Sequence record: NC_048205.1
Reading direction: 5' to 3' (one strand)
Length of the DNA: 64,000 bases
Source: Escherichia phage vB_Eco_mar004NP2
A model generated the notes under the pieces. That model was not told the DNA's origin. It made no database searches and worked only from the letters and a program-made list of their open reading frames with translations. How positions within the stretch are numbered: position 1 is the first letter of the stretch; each line of letters starts with the position of its first letter. The translations under genes and the position numbers were made by a program. This document shows positions 3,657 through 34,341 of this stretch, in pieces.

Positions 3657-3737
3657 TGGGGCTTGGATACGGTTTCTACGAACTACGTAAGGTAGTCGAG
3701 CAAACTCCATTTATCTCCCAAGTTTTAGGAGAAATGT

Positions 3738-4052
3738 GTGGATCGAGCATTAAGACGTCATCACCGGCAACGTGTAAAGAACAACCGCAAGAAGTATTGG
3801 ACAGTCTTCCCACATGAAGAAAGCCCTAAACGGTTAGGTATTATCACTACTACTCCTTGTATCTGTTCTTGTTGGATGTGCGGGAATCCTCGCAAATACT
3901 TTAAGAATAGTAAAGCAGGGATGAAAACCTCGGAGATTAGGAAAATGGAAGCAATGATTACGGATATTTCAAATGATGAATTTGATGGCTTTGTAGGATT
4001 CGGAGAAGGAATTAGCTCAGGCTGTTTCGAAGATGTACGCCCCGATTTGTAA
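3738..4052 (+). CDS. hypothetical Cys-rich basic protein, 104 aa (GTG start)
   Basis: GTG start 6 nt after TAGGAGAAAT; followed by terminator. Confidence 0.45.
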   Translation: MDRALRRHHRQRVKNNRKKYWTVFPHEESPKRLGIITTTPCICSCWMCGNPRKYFKNSKAGMKTSEIRKMEAMITDISNDEFDGFVGFGEGISSGCFEDVRPDL

Positions 4053-4061
4053 TTAATAACA

Positions 4062-4097
4062 AACCCCAGCTATTGAATAGGTAGTCTGGGGTTTTTC
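4062..4097 (+). terminator. rho-independent terminator
   Basis: hairpin AACCCCAG...CTGGGGTT followed by TTTTT. Confidence 0.6.
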
Positions 4098-4173
4098 TGT
4101 ATACAGGTAGATAATTTATGTATAATAAAATTCATCCACATTAGGTTAATTTAAAAAACTTAATGGAGGTAAT

Positions 4174-4521
4174 ATGAGCCGTACTTATCGTAAACAATCT
4201 GGTGATCAGTGGTGGAAGTCTAAAGAACAATTCTCTCAAGAATATTCTTTCATCAAAGAAAATGGCTACTGGATTCGTGTTATTTATGCCAAATCTTGGG
4301 ACGACATCAAAAAAGAAATGAAGGAAGCAACCATTCGTAATGAGAAAAAGGATGGTTATAACTGGAATTCTGTTAGTAAGAATGTTAAGTGGCATTCTAA
4401 TAAAATGGTTCGTCAAGGGAATCGTCAAGAACTCCACCGCGTGATGAAAGATCCAGAAAATTACGACTATAATCGCGATCATGACATGCGTAAGCGTGGA
4501 TTATGGTGGTGCTACGACTAA
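4174..4521 (+). CDS. hypothetical protein, 115 aa
   Basis: ATG after GGAGGTAAT RBS. Confidence 0.55.
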   Translation: MSRTYRKQSGDQWWKSKEQFSQEYSFIKENGYWIRVIYAKSWDDIKKEMKEATIRNEKKDGYNWNSVSKNVKWHSNKMVRQGNRQELHRVMKDPENYDYNRDHDMRKRGLWWCYD

Positions 4522-30512: not shown

Positions 30513-31247
30513 ATGAATAAAGCTATCATGAATCTTTCCCGCAGCTTCCCGCATATTTCCCGCGTCATGATTTGGGATTTAGACGGCACTATCATTAATT
30601 CTTTCCATCGTGTAGCACCCTGCTTTGATAGCGAGGGCAATTTAGATTTAAATAAGTATAAAAATGAAGCGTGTAAACACCATTTAATAATGCAAGATAC
30701 TTTATTGCCATTGGTTGAATATATGCGCCAGTGCATGAATGACGCAAATACTTTAAACATTATTTGCACCGCTCGACTGATGAGTAAGTCGGACTATTAT
30801 TTCTTGCGTAAACAAGGGTTGCGCGGTCGTGGTAATAGTAATATCCGCGTATTTTCCCGCGATACACTACACAAATATTTTAAAGCTGATAAGGTTAGCG
30901 AAATATACCACAGCAAAGACGCAGTATATAAATCTTATTATTTTGAATTATTTAAACAGTTATATCCTAACGCTGATTTTACAATGATTGATGATCATAA
31001 AGGCGTGCTATCAGCGGCAGCGTCATACGGATTTAAAACGCTGGACGCACAAGCCGTTAATGATATTCTATCAATCGGCGTGGCATTGATAGGTGAAACC
31101 TTTATTGATGAATCTCTCGACGATGATAATGATTATCAATTCCTAGCTGACCGTTTAAAATTATGCTGGGAAGGTATGACCGAGGAAGAACGCGCAGAAT
31201 ATAGTTGCAGTCCTCAACAATATATTGAGAAATTAAAAGTTGCCTAA
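30513..31247 (+). CDS. dmp: 5'-deoxyribonucleotidase (HAD-like), Dmp-like
   Basis: 244 aa as in T5 Dmp; HAD motif I in VMIWDLDGTIIN; last gene of the island. Confidence 0.55.
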   Translation: MNKAIMNLSRSFPHISRVMIWDLDGTIINSFHRVAPCFDSEGNLDLNKYKNEACKHHLIMQDTLLPLVEYMRQCMNDANTLNIICTARLMSKSDYYFLRKQGLRGRGNSNIRVFSRDTLHKYFKADKVSEIYHSKDAVYKSYYFELFKQLYPNADFTMIDDHKGVLSAAASYGFKTLDAQAVNDILSIGVALIGETFIDESLDDDNDYQFLADRLKLCWEGMTEEERAEYSCSPQQYIEKLKVA

Positions 31248-31399
31248 CAATTAAAGTTGAAATAGTCACGGTGTGTAATGATACCATGCCGTGACTATTA
31301 GCCTGCTAAGTACCGGGCGGTAATGAGACTCATTCTCATCTGGGGGGCCACTGGACACACCCACGCGTACGTAATCCAAAGAAATTGGCAAAAGTCAAA

Positions 31400-31645
31400 T
31401 TAGCGCATAGAAGGGTCATCAAACCTGTATTCTGGTCTGAACTCACGGAATCTCTTCCGCGACGCCCGAGATCCATCCGACCACTCCCGCTCAAACTCCG
31501 CACGTTTCTCGTCAAACTTCCGCTCCCTTTCCGCAATCTCCCGCGTCACTCCCGCAATATATTTACGATGCTTATTGATTGCCGCAGTCGTCCCGAAAAC
31601 TCCCGTGAGTATCCCGATAATAAAAGCAATTACAATACTAAACAT
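31400..31645 (-). CDS. small TM protein with highly charged tail, 81 aa
   Basis: ORF track; N-terminal TM helix. Confidence 0.4.
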   Translation of the reverse strand: MFSIVIAFIIGILTGVFGTTAAINKHRKYIAGVTREIAERERKFDEKRAEFEREWSDGSRASRKRFREFRPEYRFDDPSMR

Positions 31646-31832
31646 CTAATTCCCTCTCAATTTGCAGAATACGGGTACTATCACAGCGTTGAAGCTCTAC
31701 TAATTTTTCTAGTGCAAATTGTTGCTGCTTTACCTGGGCCTCTAGAGTTTTTAGGCGAACATACGCGGTATAAGAAACAATGAAAATTGCCCAGATTAAT
31801 ATTACTATTAATGTAGCTGCCACTTCCATCAT
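31638..31832 (-). CDS. small TM + coiled-coil protein, 64 aa
   Basis: ORF track; ATGATGG overlap. Confidence 0.4.
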   Translation of the reverse strand: MMEVAATLIVILIWAIFIVSYTAYVRLKTLEAQVKQQQFALEKLVELQRCDSTRILQIERELDV

Positions 31833-31936
31833 TTACGTTTCTCCAGCAATAAAGTTTCAATTCTAGCTAAGTGATTATCTAAAATACATTGCCCAATAAT
31901 CACAATCCCTAATAGTGCAATAATTACCCATTCCAT
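31829..31936 (-). CDS. micro membrane protein, 35 aa (not in ORF track)
   Basis: MEWVIIALLGIVIIGQCILDNHLARIETLLLEKRK; coupled TAATGG/ATGATGG junctions. Confidence 0.3.
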   Translation of the reverse strand: MEWVIIALLGIVIIGQCILDNHLARIETLLLEKRK

Positions 31937-32064
31937 TAAATCCACCCCGCCATAGCTGCTAACCAAAAACCTACGAAAATAAAGAATAGGAGAGTTCCGA
32001 ACCCAAAACTATTTATCCAACTCTCATACACCTCTCCGCGTCTATTATTTCTTTTGTTTGACAT
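31936..32064 (-). CDS. micro membrane protein, 42 aa (not in ORF track)
   Basis: GGGAG RBS; MSNKRNNRRGEVYESWINSFGFGTLLFFIFVGFWLAAMAGWI. Confidence 0.3.
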   Translation of the reverse strand: MSNKRNNRRGEVYESWINSFGFGTLLFFIFVGFWLAAMAGWI

Positions 32065-32231
32065 ATCTTTCGTGCTCCCATAAATGTGATATTTTAAAAT
32101 ATGTGCATAACCAACCGTGCTTGTGGACTCCTAGAAGGACTTCTACTTTTCTTACATAGTGGTTTCTGCCAATATACCATCCAAGAAATAAAAAATTTAG
32201 TTTACTTGGATGTCTTTTTGTTTTATACTAA

Positions 32232-32498
32232 TTACAGGTAATTAGATTGCTCTAGTTTAAATTTACAATCACCATATTTAAGGTCAAACTGACTGAGATC
32301 CCACCACCCAAATTTAGTACGGAGCTGTACTACTGGAAAGCGATCTCCCTTAATACGAACTTTTTGAACCTTGAGACCGTAATATTCTTCTCCCGCACCA
32401 CCAAAAGATTTTACAAATCCCGTACAAAATGGTTTGGGAGCAGGTACACAACCAGATAATATAACTGTGGCAACTAGTGCAATTACAAACTTTTTCAT
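32232..32498 (-). CDS. llp: Llp-like lipoprotein (receptor-blocking superinfection-exclusion type)
   Basis: signal peptide with lipobox LSGC; small size; adjacent and antisense to the receptor-binding protein gene as in T5. Confidence 0.5.
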   Translation of the reverse strand: MKKFVIALVATVILSGCVPAPKPFCTGFVKSFGGAGEEYYGLKVQKVRIKGDRFPVVQLRTKFGWWDLSQFDLKYGDCKFKLEQSNYL

Positions 32499-32583
32499 AT
32501 TTATCTCTCCATTTCTAATTTATGAATTTATTATAGCAAAATAGAGGGATGAAAGCAAATACATTTTTATAATAGGAGATTAT

Positions 32584-34341
32584 ATGGGTTTTTTCGCTGG
32601 AAAGTATAGCGATGGTAAGACCGTACTATCTTTAAATACTGAATCTGGGGGTGACATTAATCGTCACTATAGTCCAAGTAATAATAGTATTTTTCATAGT
32701 GATATGCCATTTGTTCTAGTTGAGGGTACTTATGAGGCAGGATTAGGTGATGCCGGGAATGGGTTTTTCGTATGTCAGATGCCTCCTGATATAGTAAATA
32801 TTAAATCTAATGATCCTGGTAGAGTTATACTAACTGCTATTGAGATTAATGGTACTCACAGAGCTTTTCTTAATGGTACTCAGAGTAAAGTTGGTCAAAC
32901 TATAGTTGCCACTCAAGCAGACCCCTTTAGATCTTTTGCTAGTGTTTCTCAAACCAGTGGATTTGCATTTGGTAATAGTCTAGCATCTGGAACTTATAAT
33001 TATAACCCATCGATAGGGCACGAAGAATCTATCTCTAGGAGTGGTACAGGTGGTACTACGTTACATAGTACCTACCATGGGATAGTTAGGCCTGGTGCGG
33101 GAGCTCCTGTAGGTGTTACTGTTGCAGAAGCCTTTGCACAATTAGGTTTTCCTACTAATAGTAGCACAGTACCTGTAGATGGGAATAACCCGTACTATTG
33201 GGATCCTGGATGGATGTCGCCTCTAGGAGCAGCACATAGAGGGCATGATTGGTTTTATGTTTGCAACTCTAATATACGTGGATACGGTGGGGTTAGACAA
33301 GGGCTCCCAGGTAATGTAAATACTATGTACCACGACGGTGGGAACAGATTTGTTTGTAGGGGATCTACTACTAATTTAGCTAACCAGTCGGGTGACTCTA
33401 CAATACTACAGGATTGGTATAATATAACCCCTACTAAGGTTATTTGGTATGTTCTTAATTTAAGGTACTCTAATGGTGGAATGAGTATTTCAGGCAACCC
33501 CTTTACTGGTTCTGATATTCTTATATCTCCTTCTAATTTCATAATTAAAGGGGTAAGTCTCCCTAATACCGGGTATAAATTTATAAATCAGAATGCTTTT
33601 GGTAACCTAGGTTACCGTCCTGATATGGAGTATATAGGAAATAACGCAGCGTATACCGGGGTTTTTGGGGATACCACGGCAAGGTGTGAACTTGTAGGGT
33701 CTAGTAATGGAGGATTATGGTCTCCTGTAGACTATGGTGGAGCTAAATCCCAAATTAGCATTTACAAATTCGGAGCTGGTAAGCAATGGTATGTAAACTC
33801 TAGGGATAATACTATCGGTAATGAACACGGGGTTGTTTGGGGACCATCAGCAGTTCCATTACGACTTTTTGGTGGAAATGTAGGTAGCTCTTACATGGGG
33901 GATGATATTACTCCCAGCTACCCGGGAACAGGGGATAGATACGTTGGTTTATCAACTATTGGGCTAGGTATACCGGGTGGCAATGCTACAGTAATTCTTA
34001 CCACTGAAGTTATATCAGGTAACCTTAACTGTGCAGGTGTTCCTGCTAATACATGGAATAACGGTGTGTTTCAAGTGCAAGGAAGAAGAGCATATAGCTA
34101 TAGTAATGGAGATGCAATATTCCACCAGATTTTAACATTACCAGTAGGGTATTTAGTACCTTTTCATACTACATCTGCTTTTAGGTACACACCTAACAAT
34201 GCCCTAAGTAGAAATAGTTTTATATATACTGCTAAAAATCTGGGGAATGGAAATGTAGAGTTAGGGGTAGTTATGCACGTAAGTTTAGGTAGTGCAGTTT
34301 TCCTACCGAGATTAAGAGTAACAGTTCAACGCCTTACCTAA
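32584..34341 (+). CDS. receptor-binding tail protein (pb5-like), 585 aa
   Basis: position between llp and terminase as in T5; Gly/Asn/Ser-rich. Confidence 0.5.

Follow-up and report, generated by a model that had tools for sequence, protein, structure and literature searches.

The minus strand between the lipoprotein gene llp and the right terminal repeat of Escherichia phage vB_Eco_mar004NP2 (NC_048205.1; the window analyzed is a stretch of 64,000 nt) carries four protein-coding genes, o42, o35, o64 and o81, all of them under purifying selection, linked through start/stop overlaps and each provided with its own SD motif. They are almost certainly real, coupled genes for membrane proteins. 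As to their role, we tentatively favor a co-translated inner-membrane complex that would protect the envelope of the infected cell, either by excluding superinfecting phages irrespective of their receptor or by closing the route of DNA entry, a reading that we consider possible rather than probable. A preliminary description of the locus had reported llp followed by four co-oriented minus-strand ORFs of 42, 35, 64 and 81 aa, two of them below 60 aa; all are present at the positions listed in Table 1, the two shortest being o42 and o35.

Table 1. Positions of genes and signals between the receptor-binding module and the terminal repeat.
Feature	Position	Strand	Description
RBP, receptor-binding tail protein	32584..34341	+	585 aa, pb5/Hrs class; divergent from llp
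Predicted llp promoter	32530..32558	-	-35 TTGCTT (32558-32553), 17-nt spacer, TGn plus TATAAT (32538-32530); by eye
llp	32498..32232	-	88 aa, lipobox LSG/C; BF23-type receptor-blocking outer-membrane lipoprotein
Weak stem-loop	32178..32212	-	CATCCAAG-N19-CTTGGATG, in the 167-nt llp-o42 spacer
o42	32064..31936	-	42 aa; T5.159 orthologue
o35	31936..31829	-	35 aa, ATG start; T5.160 orthologue
o64	31832..31638	-	64 aa; T5.161 orthologue
o81	31645..31400	-	81 aa; T5.162 orthologue
Terminal-repeat boundary	31358/31357		Physical left end / right repeat start; 42 nt past the o81 stop
Strong hairpin	31263..31297		Between convergent o81 and dmp; RNA fold z -4.3 (-), -3.9 (+)
dmp	30513..31247	+	5'-deoxyribonucleotidase, pre-early, within the terminal repeat; convergent with o81

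Three overlaps link the four ORFs: TAATG between o42 and o35 (1 nt), ATGA between o35 and o64 (4 nt), and ATGTTTAG between o64 and o81 (8 nt). The first two had been noticed beforehand, whereas the third had been missed. For o35, the mechanical ORF list contains a 45-aa version starting at TTG instead of the 35-aa ATG version. The genes were also said to run toward the genome end, which is correct insofar as they point to the right terminal repeat; within the window they instead converge on dmp, because the terminal repeat is collapsed there. The repeat boundary was placed by homology to T5 and BF23, in which the start of the repeat is annotated (GGTG/TGTCCA...), and dmp is annotated at the syntenic site in chee24, SIA3lw, BF23 and Shivani, with 91-100% identity. 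The four ORFs close the unique part of the genome, ending 42 nt short of the right repeat. T5 DNA enters the cell left end first (Davison, bioRxiv 10.1101/866236), so that at this position they come in last of all unique DNA.

Comparison with related genomes shows that the string of micro-proteins noted in the preliminary description is genuine and coupled. Pooled in-frame dN/dS is 0.14 for o42, 0.10 for o35, 0.27 for o64 and 0.35 for o81, as against off-frame values over the same ORFs of 0.3-2.7, about 1. All four ORFs have SD-like motifs (GGGAG at 32079-32075 for o42) with duplex ΔG values of -6 to -8 kcal/mol, comparable to that of llp itself. These motifs and the overlaps are kept in nearly all of 30 related loci from Tequintavirus and Epseptimavirus, the TAATG overlap of o42 and o35 being found in 28 of them. 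In the loci that lack o64, seven of the 30, a new TAATG overlap rejoins o35 and o81, which argues for selection on coupled expression. The four-ORF block is present in 445 phage records.

The four genes are not new, as they have been annotated in T5 for twenty years as T5.159-T5.162 (NC_005859, where each "contains single transmembrane domain"); the present finding is a re-discovery of annotated hypothetical genes and offers a tidy case of translationally coupled micro-proteins. T5 has the same gene order, lengths and overlaps at the same site between llp and the right terminal repeat, with 84-94% protein identity (88% for o42 and T5.159, 94% for o35 and T5.160), but its llp is of the T5 type, whereas the BF23 type lies upstream here. 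The o42 leader differs from that of T5 by a 10-nt deletion common to SPLA5b and SIA3lw. Each ORF matches one PHROG over the whole profile, namely 8596 for o42 (E 2e-30), 6369 for o35 (E 2e-25), 5851 for o64 (E 2e-34) and 6447, "membrane protein", for o81 (E 7e-47), all four with function annotated as unknown. No paper in our literature search names T5.159-T5.162, and PHROG, Pfam, NCBIfam and PADLOC yielded no homologue of known function.

Synteny from the RBP/llp module to the right repeat, with the same order and overlaps, is found in T5, BF23, chee24, SIA3lw, Shivani and 23 IMG/VR loci. Phage records with o81 number 442, compared with 440 records that carry a TerS of at least 80% identity (approximately the Markadamsvirinae genomes). 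Practically all Markadamsvirinae genomes retain the four genes, irrespective of the receptor module, and some relatives have a 51-aa paralogue of o35. The cluster is unchanged beside non-homologous Llp/RBP modules of the T5 FhuA, BF23 BtuB and Epseptimavirus types, with homology between module types resuming about 50 nt upstream of o42, and it is kept in Shivani, a phage without llp. It is part of the conserved backbone rather than of the exchangeable receptor module, and its retention beside all these modules and in Shivani indicates that it is neither receptor-specific nor an Llp helper. All relatives of o81 in a word-indexed search (82 clusters) are T5-like, an o81 profile search over 1.84 G proteins returned its own family alone, and homologues of o42 among 5.8 G proteins are confined to T5-like phages. 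In Vibrio pVp-1 and Aeromonas AhSzw-1, other Demerecviridae, the genes are arranged differently and the cluster is absent. Klebsiella Sugarlandvirus has similar TM plus coiled-coil ORFs beside its RBP, which are architectural analogues only; since no lipoprotein accompanies them, the adjacency to llp may be historical.

The upstream gene is, as first supposed, a member of the Llp/Cor family. Its product matches PHROG 1119 (Cor superinfection exclusion; E 7e-24), exceeds the 20-bit cut-off of Pfam LPAM_1 (22.3 bits), has a signal peptide and a lipobox with Cys+1, and is 95% identical to the BF23-type Llp, with a dN/dS of 0.21. The gene is divergently adjacent to its cognate RBP gene, on the opposite strand, the product of which is 100% identical to the SPLA5b "receptor binding tail protein", 97% identical to the chee24 RBP, and shares 67% identity with BF23 Hrs and 30% with T5 pb5. 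The exclusion attributed to Llp-type proteins is documented, in that a near-identical Llp (DT57C/BF23) excludes BtuB-dependent T5-like phages (PMC4728585). The four ORFs share the orientation of llp and probably its transcript; in contrast to the lipoproteins, they have no lipobox, are predicted to reside in the inner membrane with cytoplasmic tails, and do not covary with the receptor.

The llp promoter predicted by eye lies in the same oad-llp spacer within which the T5 record annotates promoters; the consensus scan missed it because its -35 element matches at only 3/6 positions. Overall, the promoter/terminator scan of the sequence was not above shuffles and called no terminator. In the BF23 record, the first of the small ORFs is preceded by a predicted promoter of its own. 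The stem-loop between llp and o42 is conserved in BF23-type loci, is followed by no T-run, and its spacer folds no better than shuffles (z -0.74); it is probably not an efficient terminator. By contrast, the strong hairpin beyond o81, which has a T5 counterpart at the same site with a different stem sequence (z -7.1), is likely a bidirectional terminator that escaped the terminator scan because its loop is >8. Bas33 RNA-seq resolves transcription and the non-pre-early class, while promoters, strand and the smallest genes are below its resolution; in these data transcript levels of llp and of the homologues (bas33_0187-0191) are similar at 20 min, and none of these genes is transcribed if only the first-step DNA gets in, which indicates that the four genes are not pre-early. 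We consider it somewhat probable that they are co-expressed with llp. In the published T5 CRISPRi-ART screen the four genes fall outside the 17 Fit and 36 Semi-Fit genes, and llp is likewise not listed; the low sensitivity of the screen outside the pre-early region makes "not Fit" weak evidence, and the absence fits an accessory function such as llp has.

The products bear out the earlier claim of one TM helix each, with coiled-coil or charged tails in two of them. Every ORF contains a 19-residue span with a mean Kyte-Doolittle hydropathy of 2.1-2.6, to be read against a baseline in which 11% of the 35-100-aa six-frame ORFs of the window reach 2.2. The o42 protein has a basic N-terminus and a C-terminal TM helix with a G32xxxA36xxxG40 face, and o35 an N-terminal TM helix, the invariant GQCILDNHLARIE and a KRK end. 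In o64, the N-terminal TM helix continues into a heptad-repeat coiled-coil tail with 73% hydrophobic a/d positions, and its AF2 model is a single helix over residues 2-63 (pLDDT 93). A Gly-zipper TM helix (G11xxxG15xxG18) in o81 is followed by the invariant AINKHR and an E/R/K-rich helix; here the AF2 model is one helix over residues 2-69 with a highly charged tail, and the last ~14 aa are variable in the alignment. Both AF2 models consist of single long helices only. The topology prediction proposed as a check in the preliminary description suggests that o42 is N-in and tail-anchored and that o35, o64 and o81 are N-out with cytoplasmic tails; the calls follow the positive-inside rule only, which is ambiguous for o35 and o64. 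All four proteins are predicted to reside in the inner membrane, and with tails predicted to be cytoplasmic, any exclusion would act there.

Based on these data, we propose the following scheme. Transcription of the four genes would follow second-step DNA transfer, start chiefly at the llp promoter, possibly with the aid of a weak internal promoter, and stop at the hairpin between o81 and dmp (31297-31263). Translational coupling would set fixed ratios of the four proteins, which would insert into the inner membrane in the predicted topology and, through their conserved small-residue TM faces and coiled-coil tails, could pack into a small hetero-oligomeric complex. The formation of such a hetero-complex is plausible, if a little short of an even chance. 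Together with Llp, it would constitute an infected-cell envelope protection programme, the complex acting at the inner membrane independently of the receptor by closing or blocking the route of T5-like DNA. Two modes are conceivable: the complex could seal that route once the phage itself has entered, or it could shut out superinfecting T5-like phages with a different receptor. Location on the last-entering DNA would prevent self-exclusion.

The orientation shared with llp and the lack of a convincing terminator between llp and o42 count in favor of envelope protection, as do the invariant Gly/Ala TM faces and the helix models. Near-universal conservation counts against an exclusion role, exclusion genes being often accessory and such conservation unusual for them. 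So do the lack of any significant similarity to T4 Imm/Sp, P22 SieA or HK97 gp15 in PHROG, Pfam, NCBIfam and PADLOC, and, for the proposal as a whole, the lack of visible covariation among the four proteins in 30 genomes, the by-eye promoter and the reliance on the positive-inside rule for topology. T4 Imm, P22 SieA and HK97 gp15 are inner-membrane superinfection-exclusion proteins that block DNA entry, and T4 imm is accompanied by a second envelope-level exclusion gene, sp. Like them, the present proteins are small, phage-encoded and, by prediction, located in the inner membrane of an infected or lysogenic cell; the known members act independently of the outer-membrane receptor, and our ORFs accompany llp much as imm accompanies sp. 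The difference is that there is no sequence relationship and that four coupled single-pass micro-proteins stand here in place of one larger protein. A more specific version, which we regard as distinctly unlikely, would have the four micro-proteins form an inner-membrane "plug" that closes the T5 DNA entry channel, reseals the cell and excludes later T5-like genomes of any receptor, with genome polarity as the timer against self-exclusion.

T5 is a classical model phage, about half of whose genes are without a known role. A block that is near-universal in T5-like genomes and under clear selection must do something, and this one adjoins the phage's one well-understood envelope-protection gene. 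Receptor-independent exclusion or channel sealing, if true, would bear on competition among T5-like phages, on the resealing of the cell after two-step DNA transfer, and on the design of cocktails combining T5-like phages that bind different receptors.

It is also conceivable, though doubtful, that the micro-proteins serve host takeover by binding or modulating host inner-membrane proteins (proteases, transporters, division, stress response), with no part in exclusion or lysis. Their architecture fits bitopic regulators, the invariant GQCILDNHLARIE and AINKHR at the membrane boundary suggest specific partners, and near-universal conservation suits a core host-interaction role. PspB (E 0.19), FtsL (E 0.03) and LapA_dom (E 2e-4, below the cut-off) give weak end-to-end profile alignments, sharing one TM helix that runs into a cytoplasmic or periplasmic helix. 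However, all are under the family thresholds, as is typical of TM plus coiled-coil composition, so that the resemblance is one of architecture only. Membership in LapA_dom, PspB, FtsL, the Rz-like spanins or MS2-L was rejected, the matches being sub-threshold in Pfam, NCBIfam, PADLOC and PHROG. Moreover, the T5 screen reports no fitness effect, and host takeover leaves the tight coupling of four genes and their position beside llp unexplained.

A role in lysis timing, with at least one micro-protein acting as an antiholin-like partner of a T4-type holin, is unlikely. In T4, holin T is governed by RI and RIII, two small proteins whose genes (rI and rIII, Semi-Fit in the T4 screen) map far from the lysis cassette, and to our knowledge lysis inhibition is not described for T5. 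Phage SPLA5b, which is 99.9% identical, has a holin of the Pfam family Phage_holin_T (PF11031; E 2e-112), the sizes of 64 and 81 aa resemble those of RI and RIII, the o81 TM helix is Gly/Ala/Thr-rich, and the present genes, like rI and rIII, lie away from the lysis cassette. Yet the distance to that cassette, whose holin, endolysin and Rz-like spanin map to 94-97 kb in SPLA5b, also counts against the idea, no PHROG or Pfam match to rI/rIII appears at E up to 1, the cytoplasmic tails predicted here are opposite in topology to RI, and the four genes are neither Fit nor Semi-Fit in the T5 screen.

The position directly downstream of llp and in its orientation might suggest instead that the micro-proteins aid the maturation, sorting or receptor-blocking of Llp. 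An llp clone ending at the o42 start codon gave ~100-fold exclusion, as against 10^6 from another laboratory (PMC4728585). But Llp alone is enough for receptor blocking (PMC9586334), the tails are predicted to be cytoplasmic, and the same four proteins (84-94% identity) stand beside the non-homologous Llp proteins of T5 and BF23 and persist in llp-less Shivani, which leaves a helper function disfavored and very improbable.

The N-terminal TM helix and coiled coil of o64 recall an i-spanin in miniature, with o81 as holin, and there are matches to PHROG 739 "Rz-like spanin" (E 0.16) and the Pfam family of the MS2 lysis protein (E 0.086); neither is significant, however, and anatomy largely refutes the idea, which we judge extremely improbable. 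Rz-type i-spanins are usually more than twice as long as o64, which is optional in nature, being absent from seven of 30 relatives; it lies outside the lysis cassette, a complete set of holin, endolysin and spanin is encoded elsewhere, and no lipobox ORF that could be an o-spanin partner occurs in any frame of 31400-32064, where the off frames evolve neutrally. Finally, that the ORFs are spurious products of an AT-rich spacer, as their very short lengths, the TM-like spans in 11% of random short ORFs and near-zero Bas33 RNA-seq counts for the two smallest homologues might suggest, is a negligible possibility, refuted for practical purposes by selection confined to the coding frame and by starts, SD motifs and overlaps conserved through both genera; the near-zero values are consistent with an artefact of read assignment, given overlapping neighbors at hundreds of TPM.

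The BF23-type receptor-blocking lipoprotein gene llp (Llp/Cor family) is followed on the − strand by four co-oriented micro-genes, o42, o35, o64 and o81, named for their lengths in residues, and our reading of the sequence bears out this arrangement as set out in the preliminary description. The single transmembrane helix proposed there for each protein agrees with a 19-residue window of TM-level hydropathy in all four, and the coiled-coil or charged tails attributed to two of them correspond to a heptad repeat in o64 and an E/R/K-rich helix in o81. The reported overlaps are likewise present, TAATG (o42/o35) and ATGA (o35/o64), and the third junction shows a further one, ATGTTTAG (o64/o81). 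Each start is preceded by a Shine-Dalgarno-like motif whose predicted pairing with the 16S rRNA tail (−6 to −8 kcal/mol) is like that of llp itself. On the + strand near the cluster, a 585-aa receptor-binding protein (RBP) gene precedes the genes for both terminase subunits, small and large. The same strand, further left than the micro-genes, carries dmp and A1, pre-early genes that belong to the terminal repeat. Over the 1.4 kb around the micro-genes, identity is 99.9% with Salmonella phage SPLA5b and 92-95% with many further Tequintavirus genomes.

Features of the micro-gene locus (window coordinates; HNH insertions in the coordinates of related phage loci)
Feature	Position	Strand	Basis or remark
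llp	32498-32232	-	88 aa, MKKFVIALVATVILSG/C
llp-o42 spacer	167 nt	-	sequence
o42	32064-31936	-	sequence reading
o35	31936-31829	-	sequence reading
o64	31832-31638	-	sequence reading
o81	31645-31400	-	sequence reading
predicted llp promoter, extended -10	32558-32530		TTGCTT-17-TGcTATAAT; upstream of llp, read from sequence
strong hairpin	31297-31263		between convergent o81 and dmp, ~60 nt into repeat; RNA fold z -4.3
HNH insertions	L019, L020, L022, L024 about 3660-4250; L024 2700-3281; L034 3211-3813 and 4425-4922		related loci

Judged by sequence, the four genes are the orthologues of T5.159-T5.162, which agree with them in length, order and overlaps. In the T5 record (NC_005859) these genes occupy the interval from llp to the right terminal repeat, and each is labeled 'contains single transmembrane domain'. 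The proteins share 84-94% identity with their T5 counterparts, and each aligns end to end with its own PHROG (E 2e-25 to 7e-47), which places it in the family of that counterpart; three of these PHROGs are labeled function unknown and one merely 'membrane protein'. The whole block occurs in 445 phage records and o81 in 442. These counts are close to the 440 records with the neighboring small terminase subunit at ≥80% identity, so that the cluster is essentially universal in Markadamsvirinae; it was undetected in the remaining roughly 460 Demerecviridae records. Public labels for the homologues range over hypothetical, membrane, 'tail fiber' and 'tail assembly' proteins, and the sequences of the o35 and o64 homologues called 'tail fiber protein' or 'tail assembly protein' (H5, H6, H25, H39, L001) give no support for these names. 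A literature search found no paper that names T5.159-T5.162. Both the observation and the annotation date back to the T5 genome publication and were already known, and the block is real, ordinary and of modest interest; what is added here is the evidence for selection and coupling, its status as backbone rather than module, its natural variants, the terminator, and where exactly the block lies relative to the repeat boundary.

Pooled Nei-Gojobori dN/dS over 30 related loci was 0.14 for o42, 0.10 for o35, 0.27 for o64 and 0.35 for o81, with llp at 0.21, against off-frame values of about 0.8-2.7 with a single exception of 0.32. That the short reading frames are spurious is hardly credible. The overlaps are themselves conserved: TAATG joins o42 to o35 in 28 of 30 loci, o35/o64 is ATGA in 19 of 22 and TAATG in the other three, and ATGTTTAG is kept in 21 of 22. 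In the seven phages (of 30 loci) without o64, a new TAATG rejoins o35 to o81. Among relatives, what stays invariant is the TM helices, which have small-residue faces (G32xxxA36xxxG40 in o42, G11xxxG15xxG18 in o81), together with the juxtamembrane motifs GQCILDNHLARIE in o35 and AINKHR in o81. The o42 protein has a basic N-terminus and ends within its hydrophobic helix, which in the other three lies at the N-terminal start. In o64 this helix runs on into the heptad repeat and the structure model is one helix (pLDDT 93); in o81 it leads into the charged helix (model residues 2-69), which carries in-frame deletions in some natural phages, and then a variable tail.

In RNA-seq of the T5-like phage Bas33 at 20 min, the micro-gene homologues and llp are expressed at similar, moderate levels (bioRxiv 10.64898/2026.01.13.699316, Table S1). 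When daunorubicin restricts Bas33 to first-step DNA, they are silent while dmp, a 5'-deoxyribonucleotidase gene, is still high, which identifies them as second-step and not pre-early genes. For the 108-bp and 129-bp genes the same table gives counts near zero, between neighbors with hundreds of TPM, and this looks like a read-assignment artefact. A promoter scan of the locus gave no signal above background. The only stem-loop in the llp-o42 spacer is weak and lacks a T-run. An internal transcription start there is possible, as an extra promoter predicted in the BF23 record suggests; the o42 leader (about 32085-32100) lacks 10 nt found in most relatives, a deletion common to SPLA5b and SIA3lw, and since these form the site of a −10-like element (TAAAAT or TGcTAGAAT) in other phages, the loss argues against an essential internal promoter.

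Alignment to the annotated T5 and BF23 repeat starts puts the terminal repeat 42 nt past the o81 stop, between 31358 and 31357 (GGTG, then TGTCCAGTGG); by homology, this boundary is the sequence of the physical end of the genome. Because the repeat genes dmp and A1 lie left of the cluster, the assembly has merged the two terminal repeats, each of roughly 10 kb, into one copy, from 31357-31358 leftwards probably to about 21.6 kb. The hairpin just inside the repeat is likely a terminator acting in both directions, on the transcripts of o81 and of the convergent dmp; T5 has one at the equivalent place (z −7.1) with an unrelated stem sequence, the structure being kept and the sequence not. The terminator scan missed ours because its loop exceeds 8 nt. 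In public records dmp also appears as 'polynucleotide kinase', a name without sequence support.

The four genes adjoin the T5-type pb5/Llp pair (FhuA), the BF23-type pair (BtuB) and an Epseptimavirus variant; phage Shivani keeps them with llp absent altogether, and between module types homology picks up again some 50 nt ahead of o42. This places the cluster in the conserved backbone rather than in the exchangeable host-recognition module. Its four genes for single-helix proteins are coupled, conserved and receptor-independent, and they lie on second-step DNA, on the final stretch of unique sequence next to the repeat. Entry of T5 DNA begins with the left end (Davison, bioRxiv 10.1101/866236).

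Based on these data, we tentatively propose a role in envelope protection. The llp transcript probably carries all four micro-genes, whose products would be made in fixed ratios and become inner-membrane proteins, the soluble parts facing the cytoplasm by the positive-inside rule; small-residue TM faces and coiled coils may pack them into a small complex. Such a complex might keep out further T5-like DNA whatever the receptor, or seal the entry route. We favor this because the micro-genes accompany llp, the sole known exclusion gene, because the cluster does not depend on the receptor, because the micro-genes come out as dispensable, as llp does, in a laboratory screen whose sensitivity is low beyond the pre-early region, and because both lie on last-entering DNA, which would guard against self-exclusion. 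The screen, a T5 genome-wide CRISPRi-ART study, scores 17 genes as Fit and 36 as Semi-Fit, T5.159-T5.162 and llp not among them, and its authors themselves warn of that low sensitivity (bioRxiv 10.1101/2023.09.18.558157). The proteins may work like T4 Imm or P22 SieA, which would be a likeness of role.

Modulation of host membrane proteins is a possible, if doubtful, alternative. Pfam, NCBIfam and PADLOC gave no significant match for the four ORFs; the best sub-significant ones (LapA_dom, E 2e-4, below cut-off; FtsL, 0.03; MS2 L, 0.086; Rz-like spanin, 0.16; PspB, 0.19) reflect a likeness in 'TM helix plus helix' architecture only. Searches with o81 and o42 in 5.8 G proteins, and with an o81 profile in 1.84 G representatives, matched solely T5-like phage proteins. 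Candidate membership of the spanins, of rI/rIII and of known exclusion proteins was tried and rejected. Regulation of holin T is unlikely. The holin of SPLA5b (L035 15849-16532), a phage of the type studied here, matches PF11031 (E 2e-112), the T4 'T holin' family, and no rI/rIII antiholin homologue is annotated in the inspected part of that genome. That the proteins help Llp is improbable, the cluster persisting in Shivani. In the cloning of a BF23-type llp, the reverse primer ends exactly on the o42 start codon, and this llp-only clone excluded about 100-fold vs 10^6 from an earlier group, a gap its authors call unexplained (PMC4728585, methods and section 3.2.1). Spanin- or holin-like parts are more improbable still; the lysis cassette of T5-like phages is complete and lies elsewhere (PMC4342426, PMC11664485), with the SPLA5b holin, endolysin and Rz-like spanin at 94-97 kb. 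The rest of the probability falls to some other function.

Klebsiella phage Riker_ER52 (Sugarlandvirus, L031 155-841) has no lipoprotein divergent from its RBP but two bitopic ORFs of 74 and 152 aa, both with an N-terminal TM helix and coiled coil and the longer with a Ser-rich tail; they are analogues of the T5 micro-proteins by position and architecture, with no significant likeness in sequence. Epseptimavirus phages and Shivani carry an acidic 104-108-aa ORF between RBP/llp and o42 (L007 2217-2531; L034 3030-3356) that has no Pfam match. In Tequintavirus, the conserved ~50 nt directly before o42 (about 32065-32120) look as if left over from the 3' end of this ORF. HNH homing endonuclease genes have repeatedly inserted on either side of the cluster in relatives, and insertion after o81 replaces its last ~14 residues by a different tail (…MSESGDKPVDRRSS). 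Some phages have a fifth micro-gene between o42 and o35, a 51-aa o35 paralogue (MEWVIIGIFVLL…RIETLLEERK; L018 and L019 3055-3210; bas33_0190) that is also joined by TAATG overlaps and is transcribed in Bas33 at 137-162 TPM.
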